DNA from: a virus
Direction: 5' to 3' (one strand)
Virus record (IMG/VR): IMGVR_UViG_3300034062_007329
Span: 14,787 to 78,786 of that record
Length of the DNA stretch: 64,000 bases
The notes under the pieces are model-generated. The model worked only from the letters and a program-made list of their open reading frames with translations. It did not search any database and was not told where the DNA came from. Both the position numbers and the translations under genes were made by a program. This document shows, piece by piece, positions 14,889-42,511 of the stretch; position 1 is the first letter of the stretch, and each line of letters begins with the position of its first letter.

Positions 14889-14927
14889 GTTCCTTGTTCG
14901 GCGTGGTGCCGATAGGAGAGGAAGCGT

Positions 14928-15509
14928 ATGCGTCATTGTCGTTATTGTGGAAATACTGGTCATAATCGTAGAACCTGCCCGTCCCGTTCGCCTGAAACGA
15001 AGAAGGCGGATAATGATTACCACAAGCGGTATCGTTCGCGTTCGCGTACTTGCCGCTATTGCCGTGGTAGCAATCACGATAGGCGCAAGTGTGATAAGCT
15101 TATTGCTGATCGTGCGGAATGGGTAACGCGCAATGCTGCTTTCCGCAAGCGTTTTCTTGAGGATGCCAAGAAAGAGGGTTGGGGTGTTGGCTGCGTAATT
15201 AAGATGTCGCATTGGAATAACGCTGAATATTTCTATCTTGTCACGAAGATTAACTGGGATGCTATTGTTGTAGACAATAGGTATGCTTACTCAATGGGCG
15301 TTTCACAGATCGGCGGTGACGATTGCACTAACTATAATCCTCCAAGGCATTTCGGCGTTGAGGATATCAATGATCGTGCATACTTCATGAAGAATTCGGA
15401 TACGATGGTTGAGAATCCTGTTTCAGTTGAATCTATCGAAAAAGCAATCCCCAGCAACTGGCTTTCTGGCGAGACTCCCAAAAACTATATGCCTGGATCT
15501 CTGAAGTAA
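14928..15509 (+). CDS. Double CCHC zinc-knuckle protein
   Basis: CRYCGNTGHNRRTC and CRYCRGSNHDRRKC. Confidence 0.8.
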   Translation: MRHCRYCGNTGHNRRTCPSRSPETKKADNDYHKRYRSRSRTCRYCRGSNHDRRKCDKLIADRAEWVTRNAAFRKRFLEDAKKEGWGVGCVIKMSHWNNAEYFYLVTKINWDAIVVDNRYAYSMGVSQIGGDDCTNYNPPRHFGVEDINDRAYFMKNSDTMVENPVSVESIEKAIPSNWLSGETPKNYMPGSLK

Positions 15510-15649
15510 CCGATAGGGTAGCAAAGAAAATAAATGCAGCCTGTTGACACGGGCGCTGTGCTGTGGTAGAGTAGTTAAGTAAGGTTGAGCGGCGAATGGG
15601 TCGCTGCTCAACAATAAACGCAAGTCGAATAAAAGGGTAGGTAATAAAA

Positions 15650-16711
15650 ATGGCTGTTGACTTCAAGACGTTCGCTAAGATTGTTCCCCATGTCACTAAG
15701 GTTAAGAAGCCCGTCCTGATTCGTGGTAAGCATGGTATCGGTAAGTCGGAGCAGGTTTATCAGTTTGCCGCTGCAATCGGTTTCCCCATTATTGAGCGTC
15801 GTGCATCGCAGATGACCGAAGGCGACCTTATCGGTCTGCCTTCGCTTGACGGCAATCGCACTCGCTGGAATCCGCCCGATTGGTACAAGACCGCTTGTGA
15901 GAAGCCCGTTGTGCTTTTCTTCGACGAGGTTGATCGTGCGGTTACTGAGGTTCGTCAGGGTCTTTTCGAGTTGACGGATTCCCGTAAGCTCAATGGTTTC
16001 CACCTCCATCCTGATACGCTGATCTTTGCTGCCGTTAATGGTGGGCAGCATGGTTCGCAGTATCAGGTTGGTGAAATGGACCCTGCTGAGTTGGATCGTT
16101 GGACGGTTTTCGATCTTGAGCCTACCGTTGAGGATTTCCTTGATTTCGCCAAGGACAAGCTGAATATGGTTGTTTGGGATTTCATCAACCAGAATCGCAT
16201 TCACCTTGAGCATAAGGGCGAGTTTGAGCCTAACAAGGTTTATCCTTCGCGGCGTTCGTGGTTCCGTCTTAACGAGTGTTTGACCTCTGCTGATATGCTT
16301 GGCAAGGAGAAGAATGAGCAGAAGCAGCATCTCCCTGCAATCTATGAGCTTGGTTGCGCCTTTATTGGTATGGAGGGTGCGGTTGCGCTTCGTGATTTCG
16401 TTGAGAAGTATGAGCGTCAGATTTCGATTGACGATATCTTCAACGGAAAGCATGATGCCCTTAAGGATCTGCCCGTGAACGATCACCTTGCTCTTATCGA
16501 GAAGATCCAGGCTTCCGATAAGCTTAAGACCAAGCTTGATGCCAAGCAGCTTAAGAACATTGCGGATTATATCCGAATGATCCCTGCGGAGGCTTCGATG
16601 AAGCTTTGGAAGATCGCTGGTAACGCGAACGTGTATAACGCTGTTGAGCTTCACAAGCTTTGCAACGACTACATCGTTTCGATTATGACGGGTGGTTCCA
16701 ACAAGAAGTAA
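15650..16711 (+). CDS. MoxR-like AAA+ ATPase
   Basis: GKHGIGKS Walker A, GDLIGLP, FFDEVDR Walker B, AAVN, MDPAELDRW, PSRRSW. Confidence 0.92.
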   Translation: MAVDFKTFAKIVPHVTKVKKPVLIRGKHGIGKSEQVYQFAAAIGFPIIERRASQMTEGDLIGLPSLDGNRTRWNPPDWYKTACEKPVVLFFDEVDRAVTEVRQGLFELTDSRKLNGFHLHPDTLIFAAVNGGQHGSQYQVGEMDPAELDRWTVFDLEPTVEDFLDFAKDKLNMVVWDFINQNRIHLEHKGEFEPNKVYPSRRSWFRLNECLTSADMLGKEKNEQKQHLPAIYELGCAFIGMEGAVALRDFVEKYERQISIDDIFNGKHDALKDLPVNDHLALIEKIQASDKLKTKLDAKQLKNIADYIRMIPAEASMKLWKIAGNANVYNAVELHKLCNDYIVSIMTGGSNKK

Positions 16712-16843
16712 AACCTAAACGGCAAAGGGGGCAAGCTGGAAACAGCTTCCCCCAACTGCTAATTCTACGCTTGACTCTCTCAGGCGTGCGTGATATACTA
16801 TTCTCTGTAAGGTGGCAATCCCGCCACGAAATGAGGTAATGAA

Positions 16844-18131
16844 GATGGCTACTAAGAAGAAGAATGTTGTGGATACCGATAAGCTGTTTGAGGATCACGT
16901 CAAGCGATTTGACGAGGTTAAGGAGCTTACTGCTAAGGGCGATATGAATGAGGGTCTGCGTCGTTTCGATATGAACGATCATATTCTCTCGTTGCTGGAA
17001 AGCGAGCCGTTCTTTGCCGCGATTTCGCGTCACGTTGCAAAGGTGCCTTCGCTTGCCCTGCCTACCGCTGGCATTAAGGTTTCCAGCGAGGGGCATTTTG
17101 AGATGATCTATAACCCTTATTTCTTTGCTGCGTTTGAGCCTAAGTATCGTTTGGGCGTTCTCAAGCATGAGTTTTATCATGCTATCTTTGAGCACGTTAC
17201 CACTCGTTTGCCCGATGCGGAAGATGGTTCGGGCACTAAGAAAATGAATCGTCTTTGGAATATTGCGACTGATCTTGCAATCAACTCGCATCTTCTTACT
17301 GAGATTCCCCTGTTCGGTTGTTTGCCCGAATATGGGCAACTTGCTGATATGCCTGCTGGCAAGACCGCTGAATGGTATTATGCGGAATTGAAGAAGAAGC
17401 AGGAGGAAAATGGTGGTGGCGATGGTGAAGGCGATGGCTTTGGTGATCCCTTTGACGATCACAGCGGTTGGGGTGAAGGCGATATCGACCCTTCCGTGAA
17501 GGAGATTGCCAAGCAGCGTCTTAAGGAGATGATGAAGCAAGCTGCGGAGGAAGCGAATAAGAAGTCGTGGGGTTCGATCTCTGCTGATATGCGTCAGGAT
17601 ATTCTTGACCGCATCTCCAACAAGGTCGATTGGCGTAACGTTCTGCGTTATTTCATTAAGACCTCGCAGCGTGCAAATAAGAATCATACGGTGAGGCGTC
17701 TTAACAAGCGTTTCCCCTATATTCACGCTGGCGCTAAGGTTGATCGTCGGGCAAACATTGCCATTTCGATTGACCAGTCGGGTTCGGTCAGCGATGAAAT
17801 GCTGGTTAAGTTCTTTGCAGAGTTGAATGGTCTTGCAAAGCTTGCCACTTTCACCGTTGTTCCGTTCGATACGGAGGTTGACGAGAAGTTGGTGTATGTC
17901 TGGAAGAAGGGCAAGCACCAAAAGGCAGAGCGTGTTAAGTGCGGTGGAACCGATTTCAACGCTCCCACGAAGTATGTGAATGAGCGTAAGTTTGATGGTC
18001 ACATCGTTCTTACCGATATGTACGCTCCGAAGCCCATTGCTTCGACTTGCCAGCGTATGTGGATGACTGATAAGGTTTGTGCGAACAATCCTTATTTCAC
18101 CACCACGGAGCGTGTTATTGCGGTAGACTAA
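16844..18131 (+). CDS. Metallopeptidase-like (HEXXH) plus VWA domain protein, MoxR partner
   Basis: LKHEFYH, WNIATDLAIN, MIDAS-like IDQSGSV, GGTDF, VLTD; start uncertain (16812-16844). Confidence 0.9.
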
Positions 18132-18806
18132 ACGAAACGCGGTTGGTTGGCAACTGGATAATCGGTTGCCAGCCGCCGCAAATCGGTTTGCAAAATGGCG
18201 AGGAATCTAAATAAACCAAGACTGGACCAATATAGGGTAGGGAGCATACTTAAGTTTCAACCAGGAAAAGATCTGGAATATGAATACTATTTGATCCTGC
18301 GTATTGATGCATTAAAGAAAAACAAACCAATACGGTATGCTGTGCATATGTGGAAGGTTGGTACAGAAGAACCAAAAGACATTTATCAAACCCCTTGGCA
18401 AAGCGCGGAAGCTATTAACCAAATGTTGGATAATGAGATGATGAGTGTTGAGTCTTATTAGAATCCCAGCAAAAATATTGCTTGACTCCCCCGCCCCGTT
18501 GTGATAGACTGTAAGAAGATAAGGAGAGAGATGATGCACAATAAGGAAGCCTGTAATCACTTTATGCAGTTAATCGGAAATGTTAAGGAGCTTTATTGGG
18601 AGCATGACGATATCCTTGTTCAGCGTGATGTAGAGAAATGGACTTGTGAGCTTTGCGGTGAAACCAAGTTTGCAATTCAGGAGAATGAACGTGAGTTAGT
18701 TGATAATCAGTAGAAAAAACCAGTTGACACTTAACCCTTAACCCTGTAAGATTAAGCAAGATTATTTAACCGCTCCATTGTGAGCAGAATAAAAGGATAA
18801 AAACAA

Positions 18807-19121
18807 ATGGCTACTATCAATAACATCGACGTTCTCGCTGCAATCCAGTCCTATCTCGATAGCAATAATCGCCCGTGTCCTGCCCATTATCTCAATGACA
18901 AGTTTGGTGATGATGTTGCAGAGAATATTACCAATCTCAAGAAGGATGGTAAGGTGGTTGGTCGTCGTGGTCGGAATGGTGGTATCGTGTTTCCTGATAC
19001 CGTGTTCAAGGATAAGGCGGATAGTTCTTCGCCTGTTGCCGCAAAGAAGGTTGCGGTTGACACGGAGGATTCCGATTCCGACAACGATTCCGATGTGGAG
19101 ATTGTCGATCTTCCCATCTAA
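18807..19121 (+). CDS. Winged-helix-like protein with acidic tail (paralog of 38677 and 41513)
   Basis: RPCP...GRRGRNGGI resembles the Rrf2 wing S.RG..GG. Confidence 0.55.
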   Translation: MATINNIDVLAAIQSYLDSNNRPCPAHYLNDKFGDDVAENITNLKKDGKVVGRRGRNGGIVFPDTVFKDKADSSSPVAAKKVAVDTEDSDSDNDSDVEIVDLPI

Positions 19122-19249
19122 TTAAATACAAACAAACGTAGCCAAAGCCCCTTCATTGGGGCTTTCGGCGTTAGAGGAGCATAACAAATGCTAATGATCA
19201 CTACTTGCATCGCAACACTTTTAATTGGCTTTGTATTGTCAATTGAGTA

Positions 19250-22200
19250 ATGGCTATGGCAGATCCAATGTCAGTAAAACCCGTAGTAACAACTACGTTA
19301 AGAGAATTAATGGGACCAAAGTGGCAACATAAAACAACGAATGGCAAGTATTGGGTTTCAACCAGCGATGTTATGTTTACTGGTTGGGAAACAATGGTAT
19401 TTGCAGTTCGATCAGATGGTGATATAGATTATGTAGGTTTAGACGAAGAAAGATATTCCAACGAAAATCAAGCGTATTGGGGTCATATCAAAATGTTCCA
19501 GAAGTGGGACGAAAAGGAGTAATATAAAATGGGTGTTCTAAAGTGTTTTGTTTGTGGTTGCTATCTTCACGATGACGAGGTTGTTTGGATTGAGTTAGAC
19601 GATAATCATTCAGCAGCTCATTGTGTCTCGTGTGCGCCAGAACAACCTGATTATGACGAAACTATGTGATTATTTCCAGATTGGTCATTTGTATGAAATA
19701 GAAATTAAGTCCTACGAAAATGGAGATATTCCAGAAATAACAAAAGCGGTCTTAGTTCTAAAGAATATTACAAAAGAACATAATGTTAAAATCTACGAAG
19801 GTAGAACCGCAATGCTACTATGCTATCTGGATGATCCATCCGAAACAACAATCACTTATCTTTATCGCGAGGAAAGTAGCCAATGGCTGAAAAAGATATC
19901 CTGAAAGAATATTTCCAGGTTGGTCACTTATACGAAGTGACATACAACAAGCTTTCGCAGATTAAAGAGAATGGTGGGATTGTAAAAAAAACCTTCTTGC
20001 TTAAACACATTAATCCATTTCTTAGCAAAGATATGTTGTTTGAGGATATCGAGAATGGCGAAGAACAATTCTTCTACTATGAAGAATACAACATAGATAC
20101 CCTCAAAAAAATCTCTTGACGGGCGACCCTGCGCGTGATAATATGTTCTTAACGCTGGTGGTCAGCGAGAAAAGGATATTATAAATGCGTTGGGGATATA
20201 ATCGTTTTGCAAAGCCCAAGGTTGTCGTGCAGAAGGTGAATGATCCTTCTATTCCCGCTCGCCTTGATGCTCTTATCAACAATGGCGTGATTACCACTAA
20301 CGATAAGGCTATCTGCGAATCGCTTAAGCAGGGTTGGGATCGCTATGGTTCAATCACCGCTGGTCAAAACGGATTGCTTCTTAAGATGGAGCAGCGTTAT
20401 GATGCAAGCGAGGTTGCCAAGCGAACCGCTGCACAAAGCGATTGGCTTTCTAACTTTACTCCCGAAATGCGTGCAAGGCTGAATGTTTGCGCGCAGTATT
20501 ACGTTACCACTCCGTATTTCCGTGATATCGCGGTTCGCGTTATGAACGAGCCTACTTGGACGCCCAGCGAAAAGCAGTATCGCGCTATGTGTGAAAACAA
20601 GTATGCCCAGCGGATCATGGAGAATATCGAAACGCCTGTTAAGTATCCTGTTGGTTCAATTGTAGAGATCCGCAAGACCGCTCGTTATTGGGGTGATAAC
20701 AAGATTTGTGCTGTTATCGCGTATGAGAACGCGGTTGGTCCTGCAAGGGGTTCGCGGCAATACACCTTGATGCCTTTTGGTGGTGATAACAAGATCACGA
20801 TGCCAGAGCGTGATATCAAGATTTACCGCGCAAAGCCCGAACACGAACAGGGGATTGAGGATGACAATGAAGATGCGCCCTTTTAATGATGTGAATGGTG
20901 TTTGGCACGATAGCGTCGGTGTGCCAATTGACAAACACGAAAGGGATAAGTGGGGAACCGAATGTGCTGAGTGGTTGGCAAAAGAGCCAAACGAGTATTT
21001 TGTTTATACCCGAAGCGGCGATACCATCGTAATTGGTATTCGTGACAGCGACGGCAACACCATCGAAATTTTTGATTGCAAAATCCGAAGGGATATGAGG
21101 TTCATTAATGAGTGATTCTAAGAAGATGACATATGAGCAGATGGAGTTTATGTACCAAACCGCAATTCAGGCAGCTACCAAAACGCTGTTTGAGGATCAT
21201 TACGCGGATCACGGATGGACGCAGAAGGAGTTTACCGAAACGATGCTTTGGACGATGAAGGCAGTTCAGGAGGGTAAGCTGCAAAGGTGGGTTAACTAAA
21301 TGGATGCTATTATGTCAAAGGTTGTGCAAATTAATCTAACTGGACAGGAAGTTCAGGATATGCTTATGCATAAGATTTATGCTAAGTATCCCGATCTTGC
21401 AGATGATACTAAGTGGTGTTGGGAGGATTTCTCTTTGAGTTTCAATAGCCAGAAACTTGAAGCCGGTGCCCTAAACATTATTTTTACTCAGAATAGTGAT
21501 TATTGTGAGGATAGCAAGGAAACTACTAATACCCCTATTACCTTCGTTGAAGGCGGTGGAATTTAATGTCTAATAAGAATAGCCACTATAAACTGGACTT
21601 CAAGATTAAGAGCAACGGCGGTAATCTGACGTTTCAGGATTTCCGTCGTAGGTATTACTGGACGGGAAGTAGCCAATGGAATGTTCCGTTTATTGAGCGT
21701 TTCCTTAATCAGCTTTATGTTGACAACAAGGTTTCTACGATTGTTCCAAAGGACATTAATATTGTCCAAACGGCGATTGATGCTGGTCTTGTGTTGAATA
21801 AAGAAGAGGTAATCGACTTTCATCGTTATGTCGCAGTTGGCAGAGAGGTTTGGTATAAGGATCTCCAAGACGAAACTGGAAGGTTGAAGAATCGACTTAT
21901 TACTTCAAGTTCGCGCGAGCGTTATGAGATAATTCTTTCCTATCTTGCAACGCAGACTCCAGAATTCCAGAGTTGTGAAGCGCAATTCCAAACGTGGCTT
22001 GCCAAGCGTCCAGGTTTGGTGGAAGTTTGGAATGAAGTTTTTGAGGAAAAGCCCACGCTTCTTAGGTTTGCAAGGGCTTCAAAGGATCATACTTTCCGAA
22101 CCAAGTTGGAAAATGCCCGTCCTCGCACTTTGAAGATTGGTACTCTTGTTCAGTTAAAGGATAAGTATATTAATAACAGGAGTCGAGATCCATTTTATTG

Positions 22201-24173
22201 GGAACAAGATTATAAGAGTTCTCCTCGACTTGGTATGATTGCTGGTTTCAACGAAGATAATGCATATGGTTATGGCTCACGATTGCTCAGGATTATGTGG
22301 ATCGCAAGCAGCCAAGAAACTACAATCATGGAACGCGACCTTAAGATCCTTAGTGAGTAAGTAGCAATTACCCTCTTGACTTGAGCGGGAGCCTATGGTA
22401 TCCTGTTCTTGTCATTTGGAGCGGAGAAAAAGAATGTGGCATCGAAGCAACCTTAGAGATCGTGATTACAAGTCCAGTTCATCTGTATACAAAAAGTATG
22501 CTAAACATATCGGCAAGCTTGTTGGTTGTGAATATTGGGCTGGTAAAACTGCTGAAAACGAGGAAGGGTGGAAAGTTAGAATCTATATGATCTCCGCTGT
22601 TACTCCGCAAAGGCATTACATGAATCGCTTCGCTTATAAGCTTATTGCAGTTGGGGATCATAACGATTGCGAGTATGGTTGTGCGGGTGTTTTGAAAGAT
22701 TTGCTCCGTAACAAGCATATTGCTGGTACGGATATGCAGATGAATAAAAAGAGCGGTTGGAGGTTCCTTGATTGATCCATATGAGTTGCCAGCCGCCGCA
22801 AATGTTATTGCGGAGGAAGTGGTCAAAACATTTACCTGCCTTAAGTGTAAGGGGGAGGTGGAGTATGATCAATTCTTCAAACACGATGATCCCACATTTG
22901 ACTATGGATTCTACGCGCTAAAGGATAGTGGATACGCAGTTGGTGTAGAAATTGTAAAGGGTATGGATCTTTGCGAATGGTGTGTACCTGTGATGTACCA
23001 CTCAACCGATAAAAAGGAAAACAATAATGACTAAGGAAAAGTTTTACGATACTGCTATGGTTGCTCTTGGATGTTTTATTGGCTTGGTTGTGATTGTGAT
23101 TCTTGCTCTTGGGTATAGCGCAAATAAAACACATCAGGAATTGCAGGAGGTTGAGAAAGGCATCTTTTTTAAGAAGTGTGCTGCCGCTTGTGCGCCTAAC
23201 GATGTTTATTCTACCAAGTATAATCGTTGTACCTGTAATGCTGCTGTAATCGTGAAGGAGATTAATTAAATGGCAAAGAGTGATTCTTTTGATCGCTTGA
23301 TGGATAAGCTGGATGCAATTCACCAACAGCTTAGTGATTTTGAGGCAACGATTACAACTGCCCTTATCAAGTTTGAGGGCAAGGTAGATAAGCCAAAGCC
23401 AAAGAAGGCAAAGGATTTGCCTATCGGCACTAAGGTGACAATTTATGGCTTGGACGAAGGGCGTGAAGCGGACGATATCTACGAAGTTATCGCACACTCT
23501 AAGACTTGCGATGATGTTGTTATCTTAGAAAATGGTAGTGGTGATATTACCACAGAAAATGCAGATGATCTGGAGATAGTTTAAAATAAGGTAAAACGAT
23601 ATGGGTCTTGATATGTATATTCACGACGAACATGGCAACGAGGTTGCATATTGGAGAAAGTTTAATGCCCTTCACGCTTGGTTTGTCACAAATCTCCAAG
23701 ATGGCGTAGATGAATGTCAGCGATCCAGAAGGATTACGAAGGAGGATATTGAACAAATTATCTATATCTTCAAGGCAATTGATGAAGCGCCAATGGCAGC
23801 TCAAGTTTTATTGCCGCCAAGGGATGGTTTCTTCTTTGGTTCTACCGCGTTTGATGAGTATTTGCTGAATGATGTAAGATCCTCAATCCCTGTGTTTGAG
23901 CGATTGCTGGAATCGGTGGATAGGGAGAAATTTTATTATCAGTCAAGTTGGTGACAAATGGAATACAGAGTTGGGGATATTGTAGAATTTACTTATGGAG
24001 CAGTAGAAGCAGGAATGTCTGGAACCAGAACCGTTTTGCTTTTGAGGAAACTGGAACAGAAAGATTGGTGGAGGGGAGAACTAATTAACGATTCCAATAA
24101 TTATTTGGGTAGCACTGGGGAGTTTTGTTTAGATCCAGGGGGACATAATAAACTGGTTTGGAGGCAAAGTTAG
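19250..24173 (+). CDS. Run of about 17 small early hypothetical ORFs, including paralogs 19652/19883 (YFQ.GHLYE), 20185-20886, 21566-22360 and the conserved phage protein 23601-23954 (MGLDMY..YWRK.N..H..F..FFFGS..YYQSSW)
   Basis: Contiguous, coupled + strand ORFs with RBSs and internal promoters. Confidence 0.6.
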
Positions 24174-24176
24174 TGC

Positions 24177-24448
24177 TTGACAAGCCCTTCGCTCCGTGAT
24201 AAGATGTCTTTAACGCTGGTGATCTGGTGTGAGCGAAACACAGAAGTCCAGCAAAAAAAGTGAAACGGGGCGCTTGACAACGGCTCGGAGTCGTGGTAGA
24301 CTGTTCTTCAAGGTGGCGCTGAGTGCGAGGCGCACCGACGAACGAAAGAAAAAAAGAGTGCTTGACAAGCCTGCCCGCGTGTGGTAGACTGAGCGGGTAA
24401 GGTTGAGAGGCGGTGGTTGTTGTTAGAAACCCCGCGTGTTCTTTAACA
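24177..24448 (+). promoter_or_regulatory. Three tandem sigma70 promoters (24177, 24274, 24362) followed by a boxA-like element TGTTCTTTAACA (24437-24448)
   Basis: Consensus -35/-10 pairs; boxA differs by 1 nt from rrn TGCTCTTTAACA; lies upstream of the tRNA cluster. Confidence 0.75.
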
Positions 24449-24796
24449 ATTGAATAACACCGTGATATTGTTTCTTTGAACAAAAGAGAAGGAACACAAA
24501 TGTCAAAAGTGCAAGTAGATATCACAAATCTTAAGCGGATTCTTCCTGCTTGTAGGCGATGCCGTGTTCGTAGTGACCAAATGCTGCGAGACAGCGAACA
24601 GCCAATGATTTGTGATAAATGTAGAGATGTAATTAAGAATGACTTTCCTCATATGGTTCCGCTTGAACCTATTCCTTTTGAGAGAGCGAGGGAATGTTTG
24701 TTCAACCATGAAAGAGAGTGCGAATGTTGGCAGGAAGGAATCGCGTTTCCTCCTGAGCCAGCGCATTGGAGAGTGAACGAGCTGTAACGCAATACT

Positions 24797-24873
24797 GGAC
24801 CTGTAGCTTAACTGGTTAAAGCACTCGACTTATAATCGAGAGAGTCTGGGATCGTTCCCCAGCGGGTCCACCA
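24797..24873 (+). tRNA. tRNA-Ile(UAU)
   Basis: Cloverleaf; anticodon arm CTCGA-CTTATAA-TCGAG; CCA encoded; atypical T-loop ATCGTTC. Confidence 0.85.
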
Positions 24874-24878
24874 ATTAC

Positions 24879-24967
24879 GGGGATGTGGCGGAATTGGCAT
24901 ACGCAAAGCACTTAAAATGCTTCGGGTCTTAGCGCCCATGTGGGTTCGACTCCCACCATCCCCACCA
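24879..24967 (+). tRNA. tRNA-Leu(UAA)
   Basis: AAGCA-CTTAAAA-TGCTT, long variable arm, GTTCGA, CCA. Confidence 0.95.
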
Positions 24968-25024
24968 ATTTTGTTAGTCGTTTCGTGGTAGAGACAACTA
25001 ATTATTATTACGAGGTGTCTCCCT

Positions 25025-25477: not shown

Positions 25478-25483
25478 TTTAGT

Positions 25484-29887: not shown

Positions 29888-30083
29888 TTATTTTAGAACA
29901 TACTTGTAGGTGTAAAGCCACAGATGATCCTTTCGTCTGTGGCATTTTATATCACGGTGTTATTCAAATGCGGTTTCCAGCCGCCCGCAACTTATTTCCC
30001 CGCAACCAACAATTAAACTCTTGACACGCTGCCCCTGCCGTGGTAGTATGGTATTAACGCTGATGGGCAGCGAGAGGAAATGA

Positions 30084-31002
30084 ATGTCACTTTATAGTGA
30101 ATGTGCGGATATCTACGCAGAATATGTTGAACCCTATTACTATGATGGGGACTATGATCTTGAGTTTATGCCTAAAATGAGGCAGCGTGCTGCAAAGGCA
30201 GTTGTTGAGTATGTGAAAAAGAATTATCCAGATACTCCCACAACCTATTGCAAGGCTTGTGACGAGATCCATCCATACACCAAGATTGTTTATGATTCTG
30301 GTGTTGCTGCCGATGTTTGTTTGGTTTGTGGTTATGGTGTAGTTCCGATTGAGGGGAAGTAAAAATGGAAAAGCGTTGCTCAAATTGTAAAAGCTATCTT
30401 ACTGATCTTGAAATTGAAGCTTGCGGTGGAATGTGTGCTGAATGTGAATTCTATTCAGTAGTTTTAATGGATGATGATAGTTTGGAGGAAGCGTAATGTC
30501 TAATATCTATATGATCCGCCGTAAGACCGATGGTAAGTATATTTGCGGAAGCGGTCGTTATCCTTGGTTTTCCGATGATATCGGTAGAACCTTCTATTCG
30601 CTCCATTCGGTTAAGATTTTCTTAACAAACTATCTCAAGTGTAATAAGATCAAGACTTGGGAGAATGGACGTTACAAGTTTAATGCTGGTGAGTTCTTTA
30701 CTCCAAGCAACATTCTTCTTAATTGTGAAGTTGTAGCGGTTGAGGTTAAGCCAAGTTCTATCCAAGACATTTTTGAGTTCTCCGCTCAAACTGAAATGGA
30801 GCGAAAGACAAAGAAGAAGAAGGCAAAGAAGTAAGCAATGTTCAAAGTAACTTGTAAGTTATATGAATTTCATAAAACTGACTATAGTTACGAATATGAT
30901 GCCTATTTCTGTTGCGATTGCGATGATTGGTTAGAAAAGAAATGTGAAGATCATCGCTGTAACTTTTGTCCAAAGCGCCCAGATAAGCCATCGCAAGTTT
31001 AG
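30084..31002 (+). CDS. Early operon of small ORFs (30084-30362, a short Zn-ribbon ORF, 30496-30834, 30838-31002)
   Basis: Promoter at 30021; coupled ORFs with CxxC motifs. Confidence 0.6.
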
Positions 31003-32322: not shown

Positions 32323-34880
32323 ATGGTCGAGCATAAGGTGGGCGAACTTGTTTTGATGGTTCTTAGGACTTATGAGAGAAGATACCAATACCTTGGTATC
32401 ATCAAAAAGGTTGATGACGGAATAATGATTGGTACAAAAGCCTATTTTGTCGAATGGAACGATGGACAAGACAATTGGTATTCCTCGGAAAGTATTGAGG
32501 AAATGAAAAGTGACCTCTGGACTTACTATGAATCACAAAATCGGTGATCTTATTTGGTCACAATCCGCACACGAAATTGCAATCATCGTTGGATACTTTC
32601 CAAATGGTTTGCACGGATCGGACAAGTTTAAATATTCCGTTTGCCACAGCTCTACTGGTAATCGGTTCTTCTACACGGAAGAAATGATTGAAACGGGCAA
32701 AAAGCAATTAGAGAAATTCTATGAACGCGAAGCATCAAATCGGTGATCCTGTATACAGCAATTCGTATGGTCTTGGATATATTTCTGATATTGAACCAAC
32801 CACTCTTCATGTGAAGCATCACGTTAAGTGGATGGACGATAATATGTTTCTTGCAGATGATAGATGGTATGAAGCAAAAGGCATTGACACTCTCAAGATG
32901 TTCCTGCGAATGAAATTGCGCGGTGAAGATATATGAAACATAAAGTTGGTGACCTTGTTTATTACAAAGCAAACAAGAAAGTGTTTGCAGACAAAAACCA
33001 ACCTTCAATTGGCATTATAGCCAAGTGCTTTCCAAGGAAAGATACTTATTGGATTGAATGGTTGAATGACAGCGATGTGCTTTATCAGAAATTAGTAATG
33101 ACAGAGTTTTCGGGTCAGGCGATTGGTTGGTTCAAAAGAGATTTGCAAGAGGTATTAGGGAATGACGGAACACAAAATCGGTGATCTTGTTTACCAGCTT
33201 GACAACAAAAGCATTGGCATCATCACAAAGATCACAGATGATGATAAGGAGAGTATGCCTCGTTACCGAATGATTTATATTATTGAATATGCAAATGGCA
33301 AAACTGGTCGTCATTCCGCTGCCGTCATTGATGGTATGAAAAGCAATCTACAAAACCACTTAAGGAAAGAAAATGGATCACAAAGTCGGTGATTTGATAT
33401 ATGACGATATTAGCGAAGCCATTGGAGTGATAAAGCGAATCCGTGAGGATGAAGAAAATGGAATACTCTATGATATCGAATGGAGTAGCGGAGAGGCATC
33501 AACTGGTATTCACGGACTTGCATCGGAATCAATTGACTATCTCAAGGATTTACTAAATGCAGAACTCAAAAGAGCACAACGTCGGTGATCTTGTTCTTGC
33601 TGGTGGTTTAGGGATCATAACAAAGATAGATAGGGATTTCCGTGCTGACTGGTATCACGTTGAATGGTGTTGCGAAGGAAATGAAGCCATCAGAAGCGCG
33701 TTTCAGGATAACGAGATCGCGTATTTTAAAGAGGCGTTGAATCGTGAATCACAAAGTCGGTGATCCTGTTTATTGCAATGGTAGTGTAGGAGCAATCAAG
33801 GCAACAAGCGAAGGGGTATATGGTCCCCAAGTAGTATTGCCAGAAACGGAGCGTAGTTATAGGATTGAATGGTTTGACGATAAACCATTTGCAAGTGGCT
33901 ACATCCGAAAGGTCTGGTTTAACTTTTATGAAGTTGCTTCCTTCAAAGAGCAATTGCGAGAGGCGTTAAATGAGCAATCATCAAGTAGGTGATTTGGTCT
34001 ACGATCCAGCATACCAAGATTTTGGCGTTATCACAAAGATATGGACAGAGGATGAATTAACAAAACTTGGAAAAGAACCTCCATATTACACAATCGAAGT
34101 GCGATTCCCAGATAGCAAGGTTATGCCAGTAGATAGATACAAGCCAAATACGATTGACAAGTTCAAACGGACATTGAAGGATATGTATGATGAATCATAA
34201 CGTTGGCGATCTTGTATTGCATAAGGCTCACACATTGAGGAATACTCTTGGATATATCAAAAAGATTAAAGCATATCGAGAGTACGAAGTCTATTGGTTC
34301 AATCCTTACTTGAAGCATCAAGATGACATATCGTTAGAGTCTGATGCGTCAATAAATTCGCTCAAAAGAAACCTACAGGAATATATGGATGAGCATCACT
34401 CATAAGGTAGGCGATCTGGTGATGGGCGTCAATGTGGACAACGAAACAATTTTGGGAGTAATAAAAAAGATTTCCATTGCAGACACTAATATTGTTGTTG
34501 ACAACAACGTGGAACGCTATTATGAAGGTGAACCCCATTACCAGATTGAATGGGCGAATGATCTCCACTCTAATGTTTGGTATAAGGAAAGCAATGTTAA
34601 TGCTTTCAAGATGACGTTTGATGAATATATGAGGAGAAAGAAAAAATAAATGGATGAGTATAAGATAGGCGATCTACTCATGATGCATCGGCTTTCACTA
34701 AAGCCAGTAATTGGAATCGTCAAGGATTGTAAAGTGGGGGATATTAGCAATAGTAAATATTACTTTGTAGAATGGATATCCGAAGATGCGGGGATTACAA
34801 CAAACGTTTGGTTTGCAGAATGTGATATACAATACTATAGGCAAGCGTATGTGCAGTATGCAGCGGATAATAGCCTTTAG
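32323..34880 (+). CDS. Tandem array of 12 paralogous 68-86 aa SH3/KOW-like ORFs
   Basis: All begin (H/Y)(K/Q/N)(V/I)G(D/E)(L/P), followed by G.I..I and mostly Y..EW; overlapping junctions. Confidence 0.85.
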
Positions 34881-35090
34881 ACACTTAAGGGGGATTAATA
34901 GGGGAGTGGGTATGTTGTATAGTGCGGTATGGAGTATAATAGGATGGACGCTGCCAACCCTGCGGAAAGTGGTATTAGCGCCACTATACCACAATATATA
35001 GTGGTGTGTAAAGCGTATCGCCTAAACCCCCGTAAATACAGGCAAAAAAACGTGCTTGACACGGTGCCTGATCCGTGGTAGGATGGTACT

Positions 35091-35429
35091 ATGATGCGAG
35101 AGTGCAGCGAATGTGGTGGTGAGTTTGATCCGCGAAGCAAGGCAAAGCGGATTGCTGGTGGTTTGTCAACCCATTGCCCCGATTGTTCGGAGGAAACGGA
35201 GGTACGGTATTTCGGTACCTCCGCAGGAGAGGGTAAGCAGGCAAGCGTGCAGGTATTGAAGTTTGCTTCCCAGAAGGATAGGGATGCATATCAGCGATAT
35301 TGGAAGGCATCATCAGGATTGAATACGGGCAAGCAATGCCAGATGGCATTCCGCGCTAATGAGATTGGCGTGCATTTCGAGACAAGGGCTACATTTACAG
35401 GCAATACTAACCATAAGGGGAAGGCATAA
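35091..35429 (+). CDS. Zn-ribbon hypothetical protein
   Basis: CSEC..HCPDC; leaderless after promoter 35056. Confidence 0.7.
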   Translation: MMRECSECGGEFDPRSKAKRIAGGLSTHCPDCSEETEVRYFGTSAGEGKQASVQVLKFASQKDRDAYQRYWKASSGLNTGKQCQMAFRANEIGVHFETRATFTGNTNHKGKA

Positions 35430-35787
35430 TGCAGTATATTATTGAACGTATGGATGCGGGTGGTAGGTGGACTAAGCATAGTTCGGCAAGCTCAGAAAGC
35501 GCAGCCAATGTTTCAGCCCGTAATCTAAAGGAAGTATACCCCAATTGGTCTATCCGAGTGGTGGATAGCGATGGGGATGTATGTAATATTCTGTAATCTA
35601 TACACTCCCAGGGTGGGGGGGGTCTGCGGTTTAAGATAAAAAGGGTACATATAAATTAACCAGCCGCCTGATAAGGCGGAATAGGGATTATACCCATATA
35701 GTAATACCCCAATTCCCCCCTGCGGGGGCTGGGCTTGACAAGGTTAGGGGGTACTGGTATAGTACTACCATAGAGGGGAGGTGTCAT

Positions 35788-35877
35788 ATGCCACATCCAC
35801 ACAAGAATCGACCACGCAAAGGTCGGCGTAAGATTGGTTCAAAAAAGCGTCGTAGCCGTAACATGAGAAAGAAGTAA
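35788..35877 (+). CDS. 29-aa highly basic peptide MPHPHKNRPRKGRRKIGSKKRRSRNMRKK
   Basis: Own promoter (35734), strong GGAGG RBS, tandem stops. Confidence 0.65.
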   Translation: MPHPHKNRPRKGRRKIGSKKRRSRNMRKK

Positions 35878-36616
35878 TAGGGCAAATGGGAGCGAATCTT
35901 GTGCTTGACACGGGGTTCGCTCCCTGCTATACTGTTTATATGGTGCGATGGAGCAGCGAACCATTAGATTGCCGCGTTGGTGATATTGTGGTTGAGAAGG
36001 TTAATGGGCAGAATCCAACTTATTGGGTTATATCAAAAGTAACAAAGAATGATAACCCAATACGATTTGGGCATACATACAAAGAAGTGTATGATATGTT
36101 TAATCTGGAGAATGATATGGATACAATAGAAAATGTTATGTTCCGCAATACGGAAGCAGTAACATATGAGATCATCCGTGGGTAATACATTCCGCGTCGG
36201 AGATCTTGTCGAATTTCAAAGCAAAGAGTCGCATTCGTTATTCCAGAAAAAAGTGTGGAATAACAAAATCGGCGTCATTTCTGCCATTAGAACAAAAGCC
36301 GAAATCGCATATATCAAATGGTCCGATTTGGACCTAAATGATGTATGGATTGCGTATGAAGATTTGAAGCTTCTAAACCGAGAGTAACAATCGGCAAGCG
36401 AAACGAAATAGTTCTACAAATAACATATGATATCTCGGGTAAACAGAACCATGTTATCACAAACCCGCCGCCGCTGTCAAGCATAAAAAGCGCCCCCTAA
36501 CCCCCTGTAACTACAGGCGAAAATAAAAGTTGACGGGGAACCCGTTTTCGGGTAGACTGTACTTGTTCGGTGGTCGTGAAGGCGTGTCGCCCGAAGCCAC
36601 TGATAGGGTGCAACCG

Positions 36617-37273
36617 ATGGCTAATGCTTATTACATGAAGTGGACTAAGGGTAACGAGAAGTTGCAAAAGGACAATGGTGGTGTTTATAACATCGTTGGT
36701 TTCGGCATCCCTGCCGATTATGATATGGGCAATGGGATGAATACGTGTCCTGGGGCGCTTGCTTGCCGTGCGGTTTGCTATGCAAAGCAGGGTCGTTATG
36801 CTATGCCCAACGTCATGAATGCGCGTATGCACAACCTTGAAATGTCGTTGCAGCCTGATTTCGTGGAAAACGTTGTTCGTGATCTTGACCGTATGCGAAA
36901 GGTTAACACGGTTCGTATTCACGATTCGGGTGATTTCTATTCGCAGGAGTATTATCGCAAGTGGTGCGATATCGCTCGGATGCTTCCCGATATCACGTTT
37001 TATGCATACACTAAGACCGTGAATATGGACCTGTTCGGGAATAAGCCCGATAACCTCCAGATCACGCAATCGCTTGGTGGCAAGCACGACGAGAGCGTGA
37101 ATATGGATATGCCCCATTCGCGCATCTTTGCAACCCATGAGGATCGCGTTCGTGCTGGATACGTCGACGGTAACGTGAATGACGTTCCTGCGATTGAGGG
37201 TTTGGTGCAAATCGGGTTGGTGTATCACGGGCAGCGCAAGTTGACGGAATCGCAGAAGCGTTATTTTGCTTAA
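36617..37273 (+). CDS. Gp88-like protein (radical-SAM-like Cys cluster)
   Basis: TCPGA.AC..VCYA..GRY, VRIHDSGDFYS..Y...W, FYAYTK. Confidence 0.8.
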   Translation: MANAYYMKWTKGNEKLQKDNGGVYNIVGFGIPADYDMGNGMNTCPGALACRAVCYAKQGRYAMPNVMNARMHNLEMSLQPDFVENVVRDLDRMRKVNTVRIHDSGDFYSQEYYRKWCDIARMLPDITFYAYTKTVNMDLFGNKPDNLQITQSLGGKHDESVNMDMPHSRIFATHEDRVRAGYVDGNVNDVPAIEGLVQIGLVYHGQRKLTESQKRYFA

Positions 37274-37283
37274 GAGGTAAACA

Positions 37284-37463
37284 ATGGCAAGGACAAAGAA
37301 AGATCGGAAGGCAAAGCATATTGACCCCAATAGCATTAAGACCCGTGATTGGTGTATGGTGCTAATCATCCAAGGGGTTACTAAGGCAGGGGTTATTCCT
37401 GATAGGCGCAAGGCACGGAATAAGTATCGGTGCCGTAATAGTAGGAATGGGGAGTGGGACTAA
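37284..37463 (+). CDS. Small basic protein (59 aa, not in ORF track)
   Basis: GAGG RBS; KAGV..DRRK..NK..CR. Confidence 0.6.
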   Translation: MARTKKDRKAKHIDPNSIKTRDWCMVLIIQGVTKAGVIPDRRKARNKYRCRNSRNGEWD

Positions 37464-37685
37464 CCCGTATTCCAGTAGGGTGGGGGGGTCTCAAATAATG
37501 TATTACAGGTAATGTATATCAGCCGCCCTTTAGGGCAATACCATTAGGATAATACCCCCCTAATAGGTATATGCCCAAATGCGGGCGGCTGACACTCTCG
37601 GGATAGAGCAAAGAAAAAAGTTGACGGCATCCCCTGTCCGTGGTAGACTGTTCTTAATGCTGGATGGTCCAGCGAGAGGTAAGCG

Positions 37686-37928
37686 ATGACGGATTATAAC
37701 GGTTGGGCAAACTACGAAACGTGGAATGTTGCTCTTTGGATTCAGAACGACGAGGGGCTTTATGCGCTTGCCAAGGAGATTGCCGAATCCAAGTATTCGC
37801 GTCCTTATCAGGGATTCGTGGATAACATGAAGGATTGCGATATTCATGCAACGCCTGATGGTGTTTCATACCAGGATCGTTTGCTTAATATCAAGGAACT
37901 GGATTCTATGATTAGGGAGCTTGCATAA
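37686..37928 (+). CDS. Conserved phage early protein (YNGW.NYETW.V.LW..ND)
   Basis: Motif recurrent in phage early regions. Confidence 0.75.
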   Translation: MTDYNGWANYETWNVALWIQNDEGLYALAKEIAESKYSRPYQGFVDNMKDCDIHATPDGVSYQDRLLNIKELDSMIRELA

Positions 37929-38381
37929 ATGATGATTCCAGGAAATAGTGTTTTTCATTGCCATTTGCCAGAACTTGGAAAGGGTGTGATTACTGCAATC
38001 CTTATGGACACCCAATCAGGAAAACCTATTGCCAAAGTTATGTGGGAATCACCAAAGCATGGTGTTGCCTCGCTTCACACATTCGACCATTTGAAGCGTA
38101 TCGATGAATGCACGGATGCCTATACCGCATTTCAGATGGTATTGCCGTTCATATGATGTTTGACGTTTGCCCTATTCCTTATTCTAAGGATAGAGGCGGC
38201 TGGCGAAGGTAATCAGTTCAGTTTACCATGCCAGCCCCCGCGTGTCAAGCGAAATCGACACGCCGATCCCCCAGGGCGATGCCCGCTAACCCCTTGAAAA
38301 GACTTGCGAAAAAAGAAGTTGCAAGCGGTTGGGGGTTGTGGTAGACTGTTCTTCGTTCGGTGGATGGTGTCTCGCCCCGAA

Positions 38382-38464
38382 AGAGTGTAGCGGTAGCGGG
38401 CTCGATCCCCGCACGCCAACCCTTGCGGGTATGGTGGAGACGGAACGGTTCCGCGCTACACTCT
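38382..38464 (+). ncRNA. Circularly permuted tRNA-mimic RNA (YrlA/Y-RNA-like), copy 2
   Basis: 11-bp closing stem AGAGTGTAGCG/CGCTACACTCT, T-arm GCGGG-CTCGATC-CCCGC, capped acceptor-like stem, D-like AACGGTT; own promoter at 38319. Confidence 0.65.
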
Positions 38465-38676
38465 AAGCGGGGAGCAAAGAAAAAAGTTGACGGGGCAAGC
38501 GAGGCATGATAGACTGTCTCTTGTAAGGTTGGCGATGCGGTACTGACGCCAGCGAGGGAACGAAAGAAAAAAGTTGACGCCCGATCGTGGGCATGGTAAG
38601 ATAGGCGGGTAAGGTTGAGAGAGGCAATATCGCCTCCCAACAACGCACCAAAGGTGCGGGAAGGTAAGCGTAACAC

Positions 38677-39030
38677 ATGGCTACTAACAAGGTTCTCGAC
38701 GTTGTGAAGTTCGTTCGTTCGTACATCGCGGAGAACGATCGCGGTTGCCCGAAGGGTGTGCTCCAGCACGTCGGTGGTTTCAAGGCTAAGGATATTGCCC
38801 TCGCCCTCGAAACGGGTCTGCTTGAGAGCGGTCGCGGTTCGGAGGGTGGTCTTTTCCCGAAGGGCGAGCGTCCCGCTCCGAAGGATCGGGTTGCGGTAAC
38901 GCTCAAGTCGCGCCTTGTCGATGCCCTTCGCGTGATTGCGACGGGTGGAACGCTGGATCGTGACTTCGCGGCAACGCTGGTTGCGGAGTATGACGCCGAG
39001 ATTGAGAAGCGTCGTGACGCTCAGGCGTAA
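38677..39030 (+). CDS. Winged-helix-like protein (paralog of 41513 and 18807)
   Basis: RGCPKGVL.HVGGFKAKDIA..L..G.LESGRGSEGG. Confidence 0.7.
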   Translation: MATNKVLDVVKFVRSYIAENDRGCPKGVLQHVGGFKAKDIALALETGLLESGRGSEGGLFPKGERPAPKDRVAVTLKSRLVDALRVIATGGTLDRDFAATLVAEYDAEIEKRRDAQA

Positions 39031-39498
39031 GTAAACAATCGGGTTGCCCCTCCGATAAAAGGGGCGCAATGTTTGGGTCCAACCTCTAACGCGAGGAGCG
39101 TCGAATCTAATGTCGGAACCGCTGTAAGAAGCAAAGATCTACATATGAAGGTTCGGGGTGAGCCTATATTAAAACCCCTTGTTTATTCCCGCAGGGAGAA
39201 ACGATAAATGCGACTCTTAGAATAACCGCCGAGCGAGGGGAAGGCGGGAACATAAATACCCCTCTCATATAATGCCAAGTGCGCGGAATCGCTGGGGAAA
39301 TCCCAGCCCCCGCGCCGAAGGCGCGGCTGGCATTCTACCACGCCCGCAACCCCACGTCAAGAGAAAAAGTGAAGGCACCACCCTCCAGGTCGAGTGCCCC
39401 TAACCCCCCGAAAACACACACGAAAATAAAAGTTGACCGCTGCCCCGACTTGGGGTATACTGTTTTTCAAGCTGGACGGTTCCAGCGGAGGCAAGTCG

Positions 39499-41403
39499 AT
39501 GGCAAAGTGTGAAGGCTGCGAGAAGGATTTCATTGTTTGCGCGCACAATGCTTGCGGTGACGATAAGGGTGGTTTCATTGTTACCCATCGCGATTGCGAC
39601 GAATGGGGTTGCGGTCTTTGCATGACCCGTTGCGATGAATCGCCAGACGAAGAGTATTGCATGGAATGCCTTACCAATAGTTCGCATAGCGGTATGGCGG
39701 ATCACTATACCCGTCGCATGGAAAATGGTTGGAGCGAGTAGTTCTAAGGGCAGAGCAAAGAAAAAACTTGACGCCCACGGTCGGGCATGATAGGATGGTC
39801 TACATGATGCAGGGTGAAACGATGATGACGGGCGCTGGCAAGGTTTGCGGCGATTGCAACGAGATTCCGCTTTGGGGCGTTTATCGTTCCGCTGCTGGAT
39901 ATTACGTTGGGACGTATTGCGGTTGCGGTCCCTATTCCCGCGAGAGCGGTTATTTCCAAACTCAGGAGTCGGCAAAGGTTTTGCTGGATTCCGTGCAGCG
40001 TTATTTCAACGCGGTGGAGGCGTAAGTAAATGGTGAAGCAATCGGACAATGCGGCGGTCGAAGCCTTCCTTAAGGCAAAGCGTGCGGTTGACCCTAACTA
40101 TGGAAAGGTCCGCAAGGCAAAGGCAAATGGCAAGAGCGTATTCATGCTTGAGCGTCAGATTGAGCAGAATATTATGATGGGTTTTGGTCCCATTCTCAAC
40201 GTCGATCTTTCAAAGAAGCAGCGTGCTGCAAAGCGTAGCGTAACCTTTATCACGGAGAAGAAGTAATATGGCAAAGCGAATCGTTGTTCTGGATGATGGA
40301 ACTTGGGAAACGCTTGGTGATGCTAAGGTTTACACTATCACCGACGAGGCATATGAGAAACTGCTAAACGGTGACGAACCGAAGCATTTGGAAACGGGCG
40401 ACGTTCTCGACACGCAGGAGATTCAGTAATATGCGAATGATGAAGGCAACCTGGATGAGCAAGCCCGTGAAGGTTTACGGTTGGGCAATCACCGCTCACG
40501 GTTGGGAGTATTATTTCCTCGACAATAAGAAGGGCGATATCCGCGAGGCATATGTTTGCGGACATGAGAACGAGCAGGGCGATGTTTCAATGAGCGAACT
40601 TAGCCCTTATATCCGATCCATTACTTTCGATGATGCGGATTTGCAGCGGTTGAATCCCGCTCCTGATTGTGTGTGGGTGGACTAACACCCCCAACCTGTA
40701 GGGTCTATCTCCAGAATAGTAGGGGGGGTCGGAACCTGTTGTTTTTACAGCGGATTCCAGCCCCCGCTCCAAAGGAGCGGCTGGCATTATAGCATGGCAG
40801 GGCAGGGCAGTCAAGAAAAAAAGTGAGGGGGTGGAGCCAGGGCGAGGGGGGTCTAACCTGTTGAGAACACTCACGAAAAAAAGATGTTGACGGCAACCTC
40901 GGGTTCCTGTATACTCTCTACATGATGAACGCTCACACGGAGGTTGGCAAGATGGACGGCAAGATGGTCACGGTTTGGATTGGCGAGTATCCCTTCATCG
41001 TCAACTATGATTTCGATATGGAGGGTTTCCACATCTATTCTATGATCGACAACAATGGCAAGGAGGTCCGCAAGTATTCCAATGTTTGGAATATCGTTAT
41101 GGACGATCTCGCGGGGCAGGAAACGGAGATCTTCTAAGCCAGGAACTAAAAAAAAGGTTGACGCGAGAGCGCGACCGTGGTAAAGTAGTTGAACACGATG
41201 CAGCGATGGTCGCTGCGAAGGGAAGCAGGATGCACAAGGTTGGCGATACGGTTTTCAAGGCGAACGGCAATGGTTACGATAAGGGCGTCGTCGTCCGTAT
41301 CACGCAGGGCAAGTGCCTTGTCAACTTCGGTTCGTTCACCTCGACGGTGAATGGCAAGAGCCTCTATACGCAGAAGCAGATCAGGCGCAGGAGCGTGAAG
41401 TAA
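39499..41403 (+). CDS. Small early ORFs each behind strong promoters (39499, 39804, 40030, 40268, 40431, 40922, 41230)
   Basis: Promoter with RBS or leaderless starts; several Cys-rich. Confidence 0.6.
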
Positions 41404-41512
41404 AAAAGAAGTTGACACCGACAAGGTGTCGTGGTAAGATGGTCAAGTAAGGTCGAGAGGGCAATATCGCCACTCCGACAACGCTCAGGAGAGCGGGAAG
41501 GTAAGAAAACAA

Positions 41513-41836
41513 ATGGCTAAGGACATTCTTTCGTTCGTGCGTGATTACTGCGATGAGAACGGTCGTGGTTGCCCCAAGGGCGTCCTGATTCACGTTGGCG
41601 GTTTCAAGGCGAAGGACATTGCCGCAATGCTTGACGCTGGCAAGCTGGAAAGCGGTCGTGGCAGCGAGGGTGGTATCTTCGTTGCGGGCAATAAGCCCTC
41701 GCCTAAGACCCGCGAGAGCGTTTCGCTTAAGTCCCGTATGGCAGACTTCCTGCGAACGGTTGACAGCCCCGTTGCGCGTATTCTTGTCGAGGAGTATGAC
41801 GCGGAGCTTCAGCGTCGTGCAGACGCGCAGGAGTAA
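41513..41836 (+). CDS. Winged-helix-like protein (paralog of 38677)
   Basis: Closely similar to 38677, with a shared 5' leader. Confidence 0.7.
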   Translation: MAKDILSFVRDYCDENGRGCPKGVLIHVGGFKAKDIAAMLDAGKLESGRGSEGGIFVAGNKPSPKTRESVSLKSRMADFLRTVDSPVARILVEEYDAELQRRADAQE

Positions 41837-42511
41837 TCATAACTCCATTCCACAATGAAGGTTCGGTGGTTCACAGCCGCCGCGCCTTCGGCGCGGCTGG
41901 TATTCTACCATGCCTCGCAGGGCAAGTCAACAAAAAAGATCATGAGTGAATCCAGGGGGTTGCAACCTCTAAGGAACTGGTTTCTTTTTTGTTGCACCCT
42001 GCCGCGAGTCGTGGTACTATGTCTGCATGATGATGACGCTGACGGACATGATGCTGGTTCTTTCAATCCTTCCCTTCTGGACGTTTGCCGCTTGCTATCG
42101 TGCAATGCTGCGCTATGACAAGGGACTCTAAGGGTAGACTAAAAAAAGATGTTGACGCGGGCATCGCGTCATGGTAAGATGCTCTAACACTTGGGGATGG
42201 TCCCCGCGAAAGGTGGAGAACAGATGGCTAAGGCGAAGATGGTCAAGAAGGAAATGCGAACCTACAAGGTTGTGGATGTTGCAGAGGCTAAGGAACTGGG
42301 AGCAAAGATGTTTAGCGAAAACCCCTATAACCGTTTTGCGCTTGTCGCTGTTCGTGGCAAGGTGCTTGACAATGTGATCGCTTGGGGCTTCAACCGTGAT
42401 CCCCTCGACAAGAAGGCAACGGAGCGAAACCGAGATATCGCCATGCTGGGTAAGATGATCGGCAAGGCGAACGAGATTGCGGATAAGGAGGAAAGCGAGG
42501 AGGCGTAATAT

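Follow-up and report, generated by a model that had tools for sequence, protein, structure and literature searches.

In phages T4 and RB69 the operator of gene 43 is a hairpin that stands beside the ribosome binding site (RBS) and has a conserved loop of the UAAC type, and the protein bound there blocks initiation (PMC3014915). Stem-loops of the PeSL type, found in T4-type phages, lie upstream of a promoter and act as terminators (PMC4122927). This report describes a short leader hairpin, located between the -10 box and the Shine-Dalgarno (SD) sequence of unrelated early genes, in a 64,000-nucleotide (nt) stretch of viral DNA that we call the window. The window comprises bases 14787-78786 of a 78.8-kb linear virus record, IMGVR_UViG_3300034062_007329, for which CheckV gives a completeness estimate of 35%. 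Like the gene 43 operator the hairpin borders the RBS, and unlike PeSL elements it follows its promoter.

Annotated phage records yielded no close relative at the DNA level. Comparisons draw instead on two IMG/VR relatives and on metagenome contigs. The relative G001 is a record of 168 kb, 92% complete, with an ATPase identity of 90%; G002, at 47 kb, shows nucleotide identity of 80-94% over the window region from 30.0 to 42.3 kb. The contigs L108-L111, L002, L004 and L025 show protein identity of 41-66% in the adjacent genes. A genome named G000 was used beside G001 in the searches for RegA and for anti-loop RNA.

Leader hairpins directly behind early promoters

Between 11.8 and 42.2 kb the window contains about 30 near-consensus plus-strand promoters of the form TTGAC-N17-TGnTAnnnT. 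Eight of these predicted sigma70-type early transcripts, about a quarter, are tagged by a hairpin in the leader (Table 1). The original prediction had listed the same eight, and all were found with the sequences and positions it gave. Its description of them as close to the -10 box, and for the most part directly before the RBS, is borne out by the spacing: the stem starts 8-13 nt past the -10 hexamer at all eight sites, and a purine-rich SD begins 0-8 nt past the stem at seven. The start of the loop varies across the eight sites, from 14 to 24 nt past the -10 box. From the 3' end of the hairpin to the start codon there are 11-18 nt at seven sites and 37 nt at 15584.

Eight other genes of the same promoter set, with open reading frames (ORFs) of 67-185 amino acids, help to place the 5' end of these transcripts. 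Their ATG lies 6-7 nt past the -10 hexamer and no SD precedes it. One such start, at the 11857 site, recurs in G001, L108 and L110 with synonymous codon changes, and another, at the 57604 site, recurs in G001 and G002; the recurrence of at least two in relatives argues that these are real leaderless genes. Leaderless early mRNAs on such a scale seem unusual for a T4-like phage. Because their ATGs lie where they do, transcription probably starts at about the seventh base past the -10 box. On that basis the first base of the stem would be at about +2 to +7, and the 5' overhang would measure 1-3 nt in five of the leaders and 5-7 nt in the other three.

The prediction that the motif would prove enriched over shuffled sequence was examined by searching both strands of the whole record for [AG]TGG[GT] loops enclosed by four or more Watson-Crick pairs. 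Eight hairpins were found on the plus strand and one on the minus strand. First-order shuffles gave 1.9 +/- 1.3 with the strands combined, so that the eight on the plus strand compare with about one expected. A relaxed search, admitting G-U pairs and 4-nt loops, added only matches that were AT-rich or G-U-rich and lay within coding DNA. All GC-rich copies stand directly behind a promoter, and the record has none elsewhere.

A survey of 502 distinct promoters, from the window plus the related loci, looked for hairpins starting 4-16 nt past the -10 box. GC-rich hairpins were found behind 45 of them, and in 17 of the 45 the loop was ATGGT, GTGGT, ATGGG or CGGT; about 0.7 hairpins with such loops would be expected, although the 17 include orthologues and so are not independent. 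Single-sequence folding z-scores are modest (-0.5 to -2.8, with the site at 15584 as the exception), and the evidence therefore consists of recurrence and covariation rather than thermodynamics. Rfam covariance models, run at E <= 1 over window positions 11000-44000, returned only tRNAs and chance matches antisense to tRNAs. A scan of viral contigs with CGCTGRTGGKCAGCGAG returned more than 100 matches, nearly all of them chance occurrences in high-GC coding DNA; only those in G001 and G002 were genuine.

Table 1. Promoters, leader hairpins and selected gene features of the window (SD, Shine-Dalgarno sequence; aa, amino acids)
Feature	Position	Strand	Remarks
Promoter of zinc-knuckle gene	14860..14888	+	sigma70-type extended -10, TTGACA-N17-TACTCT
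Leader hairpin TCGGC-GTGGT-GCCGA	14898..14912	+	SD 1 nt downstream
193-aa protein, two CX2CX4HX4C zinc knuckles and small C-terminal beta-barrel	14928..15509	+	
Promoter of MoxR/CobS-like ATPase gene	15544..15572	+	
12-bp leader hairpin GTTGAGCGGCGA-ATGGG-TCGCTGCTCAAC	15584..15612	+	folding z = -5.3
Promoter of 233-aa gene	20116..20144	+	
Leader hairpin CGCTG-GTGGT-CAGCG	20153..20167	+	
Promoter	30021..30049	+	
Leader hairpin CGCTG-ATGGG-CAGCG	30058..30072	+	identical in G002 before a different gene
Promoter of DUF7249 gene	37621..37649	+	
Leader hairpin GCTGG-ATGGT-CCAGC	37659..37673	+	unchanged in G002, flanks changed
Promoter TTGACC-N17-TATACT	39433..39461	+	without TG
Leader hairpin GCTGGA-CGGT-TCCAGC	39471..39486	+	tetraloop variant
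Promoter	41158..41186	+	
Leader hairpin GCAGCG-ATGGT-CGCTGC	41200..41216	+	unchanged in G002; promoter and SD spacers changed
Promoter	42152..42180	+	
Leader hairpin GGGG-ATGGT-CCCC	42193..42205	+	5 bp counting flanking U-G pair; unchanged in G002
Apparently leaderless gene starts	11892, 31174, 32323, 35091, 35940, 39804, 40922, 57639		

Changing stems around a conserved loop

Pairing is kept through stem changes both within the genome and between orthologues, as expected from the claim of covarying stems with a near-constant loop. When 13 distinct hairpins are aligned without gaps, each of the five inner pairs varies on both sides, whereas the loop does not vary at U7, G8 or G9; the GG is invariant in 16. 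The 13 were picked as hairpins, so their 100% pairing is partly circular, but the invariance of the loop is not. Orthologous leaders, which were not chosen for pairing, provide the stronger test. The leader of the zinc-knuckle gene reads TCGGA-CGGT-TCCGA in G001, L109 and L110 and TCGGG-CGGT-CCCGA in L108, so that the pair closing the loop is C-G in the window, A-U in the first three relatives and G-C in the last. The leader of the ATPase gene has a hairpin in G001, L108, L109, L111, L002, L004 and L025, with other stems and with ATGGT, GTGGT or ATGGG as the loop; in L002, L004 and L025 the stems are unrelated to that of the window, and the loops are GTGGT or ATGGG. The loop consensus originally proposed, RUGGK, holds in its UGG core. 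Its restriction to pentaloops does not, and we widen it slightly, so that as (R)YGGK it also covers the CGGU tetraloops.

The hairpin can stay constant while its surroundings change. The copy at 20153 is identical in G001 and in L109/L110, although promoter and SD spacers differ. Four of the five orthologous hairpins in G002 are unchanged, with substitutions and indels in promoter and SD spacers, and an extra site in that genome combines an ATGGT loop with a new stem, GAGGG/CCCTC. The hairpin also spreads as a module together with its promoter: the promoter, hairpin and SD of 30021-30081 are identical in G002, where they are fused to the gene that starts at window position 30496. The intervening stretch of the window, 30084-30484, which holds two small genes, is absent from G002 (G002:1-70), and the junction falls right behind the shared promoter, hairpin and SD (GAGGAAAT). 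The difference is an apparent cassette-mediated gain or loss of genes.

Some other leaders in the same phage have hairpins of different types. The one after promoter 16771 (window 16800-16825) reads GGTGGC-AATCCC-GCCAC, with AATTCC in the orthologues; in L111 it reads GGTAGC-AATTCA-GCTAC, with a compensatory change, so that the loop is AAUYCM overall. Paralogous leaders after promoters 38574 and 41412 (38603-38640 and 41441-41480) start with GUAAGGUYGAG and have an AAUAUC loop. The GUAAGGU start, which is SD-like, recurs at the 5' end of many leaders in the wider clade. Since these other hairpins keep loops of their own, several hairpin tags may exist in the same phage.

A probable structured RNA signal and a possible reader

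The original prediction was of an RNA operator recognised by a protein. Its first part is well supported: the element would be a structured RNA signal, or at least a single-stranded one, with a selected loop. The trans-acting reader is the best inference for what selects the loop. Half-sites that differ completely around a constant asymmetric centre, all on the sense strand and at variable spacing, fit a folded single strand. The variable spacing to both the -10 box and the SD, together with the lack of any common half-site, argues against an operator in double-stranded DNA or a fixed promoter element.

In the mechanism that we propose, a stem of 4-12 bp, free to change as long as it stays paired, would cap the 5' end of the message against the SD. 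A common factor, most likely a phage or host protein, would dock on the (R)YGGK loop with its UGG core. The hairpin would border the 30S binding site on its 5' side, and docking would for that reason set translation initiation and, through it, decay. The effect could be one of repression or of timing. Our judgement is evenly divided on whether the loop docks one common trans-acting factor, in which case the hairpins would be candidates for a hairpin-operator regulon of early messages. A stronger version is plausible, though short of probable: the hairpin would be an address tag, its UGG loop read by a dedicated phage factor or a hijacked host factor that switches a subset of early mRNAs together. 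If true, the tag would do by means of a hairpin what the RegA/RegB early shut-off does in T4, in a lineage in which RegA went undetected; the search for RegA (PF01818) found nothing in G000 or in the 92%-complete G001, a weak negative, since the same search was silent in control genomes too.

Several observations weigh against a dedicated reader. The motif is restricted to a single narrow clade, and the only reader so far proposed, the zinc-knuckle protein, has a much wider distribution than the motif. In the G002 orthologue of the 39471 hairpin the stem is kept while the loop has changed from CGGU to ACGGACA, with only the GG retained; the loop is therefore not absolutely fixed. A short hairpin at the 5' end would, moreover, have a function in protection or insulation even without a reader.

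Almost nothing is known about how early genes are controlled in T4-like phages other than the coliphages. If several unrelated early mRNAs do share a loop-specific tag, they would make up a post-transcriptional regulon, which would help in finding a new RNA-binding factor, and the tag itself would supply a compact 15-nt element for controlling expression.

Alternative explanations

The alternative that survives best dispenses with the reader. The hairpin would be a passive 5'-terminal stabiliser or insulator, guarding the message against decay that depends on the 5' end (of the RNase E/RppH or RNase J type) and keeping the SD of a shuffled cassette free of interference by the next gene, with the loop conserved for structural or compositional reasons. 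Work by Emory, Bouvet and Belasco in 1992 reportedly showed that 5'-terminal stem-loops stabilise E. coli mRNAs, ompA being the example. The stems described here begin 1-7 nt from the probable 5' end. Judged by eye, most early leaders of the phage begin with a leaderless AUG (the eight genes above), with an SD within about 10-15 nt, or with a hairpin, and the cassette is modular, with the same promoter, hairpin and SD before another gene in G002. RNAfold closes AUGGU and GUGGU into a UGG triloop by an A-U or G-U pair, which would suit a structural role for the loop. Selection for structure alone, however, predicts a loop that drifts faster than its stem, and here it is the stems that turn over and the UGG that stays. 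Loops of the UGG type are not among the known extra-stable loops, and ordinary loops, GAAG, UUCG or UUUG, are found in the leftward transcripts from this region. We regard a purely passive role as a serious contender that is nonetheless unlikely.

A more specific proposal, made in the original prediction, names a candidate reader, the double CCHC zinc-knuckle protein encoded at 14928. On this view the protein would read the G-rich loops, that of its own mRNA included, and would repress these early messages. Retroviral nucleocapsid and Lin28 knuckles grip unpaired G in hairpin loops. Across 17 homologues of the phage protein the two CX2CX4HX4C knuckles are invariant, and the N-terminal half is very basic. 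A confident structural model (predicted local distance difference test, pLDDT, 89.7) shows the knuckles, a helix and a small beta-barrel of a kind capable of binding nucleic acid; a fold search with this model returned only weak Tudor, PWWP or SH3-like matches, at E of about 0.1. Of all the hairpin sites, those in the leaders of this gene and of the ATPase gene next door are the two with the widest conservation. The distribution of the gene does not single it out as a specific reader. It tracks the ATPase/VWA module: in 64 of the 80 related loci it lies beside a MoxR-like ATPase gene, and of these only about six have the hairpin in the ATPase leader; most lack the motif. Distant homologues have no hairpin in their own leaders, the knuckles are conserved to the same degree whether or not a phage has the motif, and the Pfam knuckle match falls below the curated cut-off. 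The zinc-knuckle protein is a possible reader without specific support, and its repression of these messages through the loop we consider improbable.

The gene belongs to a trio at window positions 14928-18131 that encodes the CCHC zinc-knuckle protein, the MoxR/CobS-like ATPase and a DUF2201 protein (metallopeptidase-like plus VWA). The three stand side by side in most of the 80 related loci, which come from marine and freshwater phages. The homologues P0002 and P0003 of the zinc-knuckle protein are 85-92% identical.

Still less probable is a signal for processive antitermination of the nut or put kind, acting through a loaded factor or directly on RNA polymerase, which the original prediction had also entertained. 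The position just past early promoters and the 5-bp stem with its pentaloop do resemble lambda boxB, and the phage has a boxA-like GTTCTTTAACAA ahead of its tRNA cluster. In the tagged leaders the sequence GTTCTT(AA) sits between the -10 box and the probable start, with at most 1-2 nt transcribed, so that the RNA would contain no boxA resembling CGCUCUUA. The loops, GUGGU, AUGGU, AUGGG and CGGU, are unlike GNRA-type loops such as GAAAA, GAAGA and GACAA. The 30-kb early region has only three convincing plus-strand intrinsic terminators, each just upstream of a promoter, and most transcription units are one to a few genes long, each with its own promoter. No small, arginine-rich, N-like protein stands out among the ORFs.

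The boxA-like sequence belongs to a separate arrangement. At window positions 24177-24450 three tandem promoters stand about 90 nt apart. A hairpin and an A-rich tract come after each, and the series leads into GTTCTTTAACAA at 24438, just before a cluster of 16 tRNAs. The layout is the same in G001 and L109, and in L004 the corresponding sequence is TGCTCTTTAACAA, which we take to be the E. coli rrn boxA. The arrangement suggests a phage tRNA operon under antitermination of the rrn type.

A DNA-level element, whether the operator of a dimeric repressor, a site of cassette recombination or a Chi-like signal, is very improbable: an inverted repeat at +2 to +20 is where an operator would classically lie, the E. 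coli Chi sequence GCTGGTGG is found within the 20153 copy, and the cassette junction in G002 falls right behind hairpin and SD, but half-sites that differ around a constant asymmetric centre are the opposite of what a dimer requires, and every copy is on the transcribed sense strand.

Some further candidates were rejected. Exact Chi occurs four times on the plus strand and three times on the minus strand, is not enriched, and its presence as GCTGGTGG in the 20153 hairpin is due to chance. An AUG or GUG in the loop might serve an upstream ORF or as an alternative start, and in five of the seven the frame is that of the main AUG, but the frame and stop relations are lost in G002. No candidate for a trans-acting RNA with an anti-loop (MCCAY) hairpin was common to G000 and G001. 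If the element formed a pseudoknot with early coding sequence, or paired with the 3' tail of 16S rRNA, only the GUGGU loops would by inspection fit, so that the explanation is not general. Mimicry of a tRNA anticodon by the loop, or pairing of the loop with the 3'-NCCA of tRNA in the manner of a T-box, has no support.

Other features of the window

The genes point to a large aquatic myovirus, T4-like or cyanophage-like, as the source of the window. They include those for a GroEL-like chaperonin, PhoH with a PIN domain, purA, purB, a Clp protease, the MoxR/CobS-like ATPase with its VWA partner, and 17 tRNAs.

Consensus promoters on the minus strand, directed leftward, at 39360, 40814, 41930 and 38248, face no gene. 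Three of these start a conserved hairpin, GCCAGCCGCGCC-(GAAG, UUCG or UUUG)-GGCGCGG..GGCUGG, also present in G002. At several rightward promoters the -35 and spacer region is palindromic and amounts to a hairpin plus U-run on the minus strand (for example 42171-42153 and 39788-39771); such promoters could terminate leftward transcripts.

Four copies of a CCAGCCGCC repeat, each followed by a short hairpin, lie upstream of early promoters, at 14752-14830, 18157, 22777 and 29965. The first copy falls within an 18-codon frame that looks leaderless. The frame has a GTG start in relatives, so instead of a gene this copy may be a terminator or a small RNA.

G002 shows an apparent duplication of about 5.9 kb in its promoter-rich region (8706-12900 and 14579-18800), either real or an artefact of assembly. 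The flanks are identical at promoters 8706 and 14579, and likewise at 12564 and 18437.

Comparison with known systems

The closest counterpart in position is the gene 43 operator. Both are small leader hairpins of T4-type phages in which the bases of the loop matter more than the sequence of the stem, and both stand immediately 5' of the RBS, which the hairpin here adjoins at seven of the eight sites. The gene 43 operator, however, is a single autoregulatory site on one gene. The present element is found on at least eight unrelated early genes, is probably located at the very 5' end and has a loop with a UGG core, and its reader is only inferred.

In shape the element recalls boxB of the lambdoid N/nut system, which likewise combines a 5-bp stem with a pentaloop and occurs in several copies past early promoters; the boxB loop is read by a small basic protein. 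The element departs from boxB in having a non-GNRA loop, no transcribed boxA, no N-like protein found and no evident terminator to read through, and in a hairpin that abuts the SD of the first gene. With the hairpins bound by CsrA and RsmE, which present A(N)GGA in the loop at or near the SD, it shares a GG loop on a short hairpin close to the SD of several genes. The original prediction had pointed to this likeness. It fails at the required GGA, which no loop contains: the loops are UGGU, UGGG and CGGU without an A after the GG, and GGA spans the edge of stem and loop only at 37659, 39471 and 42193. The SD, moreover, lies outside the hairpin. No CsrA family was present among the 25 listed of the 45 Pfam families matched by 126 window ORFs.

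Stabilisers of the ompA type are hairpins within a few nt of the 5' end, where they hinder decay that depends on that end; with transcription starting where the leaderless genes suggest, the present element would be similarly placed and would do the same. They have no requirement for loop sequence; here the loop is the most conserved part.

The genomic setting most resembles that of the PeSL cassettes (PMC2839356, PMC4122927). Both have strong sigma70-like early promoters with A-rich upstream sequence, in a hyperplastic region of small genes, and in both the cassette stands before different genes in close relatives, as seen here with G002. In contrast to PeSL, the hairpin comes after the -10 box and before the SD, lacks a U-run, has a conserved loop and is followed by a purine-rich SD. 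The PeSL picture is thereby extended to a shuffled unit that consists of promoter, leader hairpin and SD.

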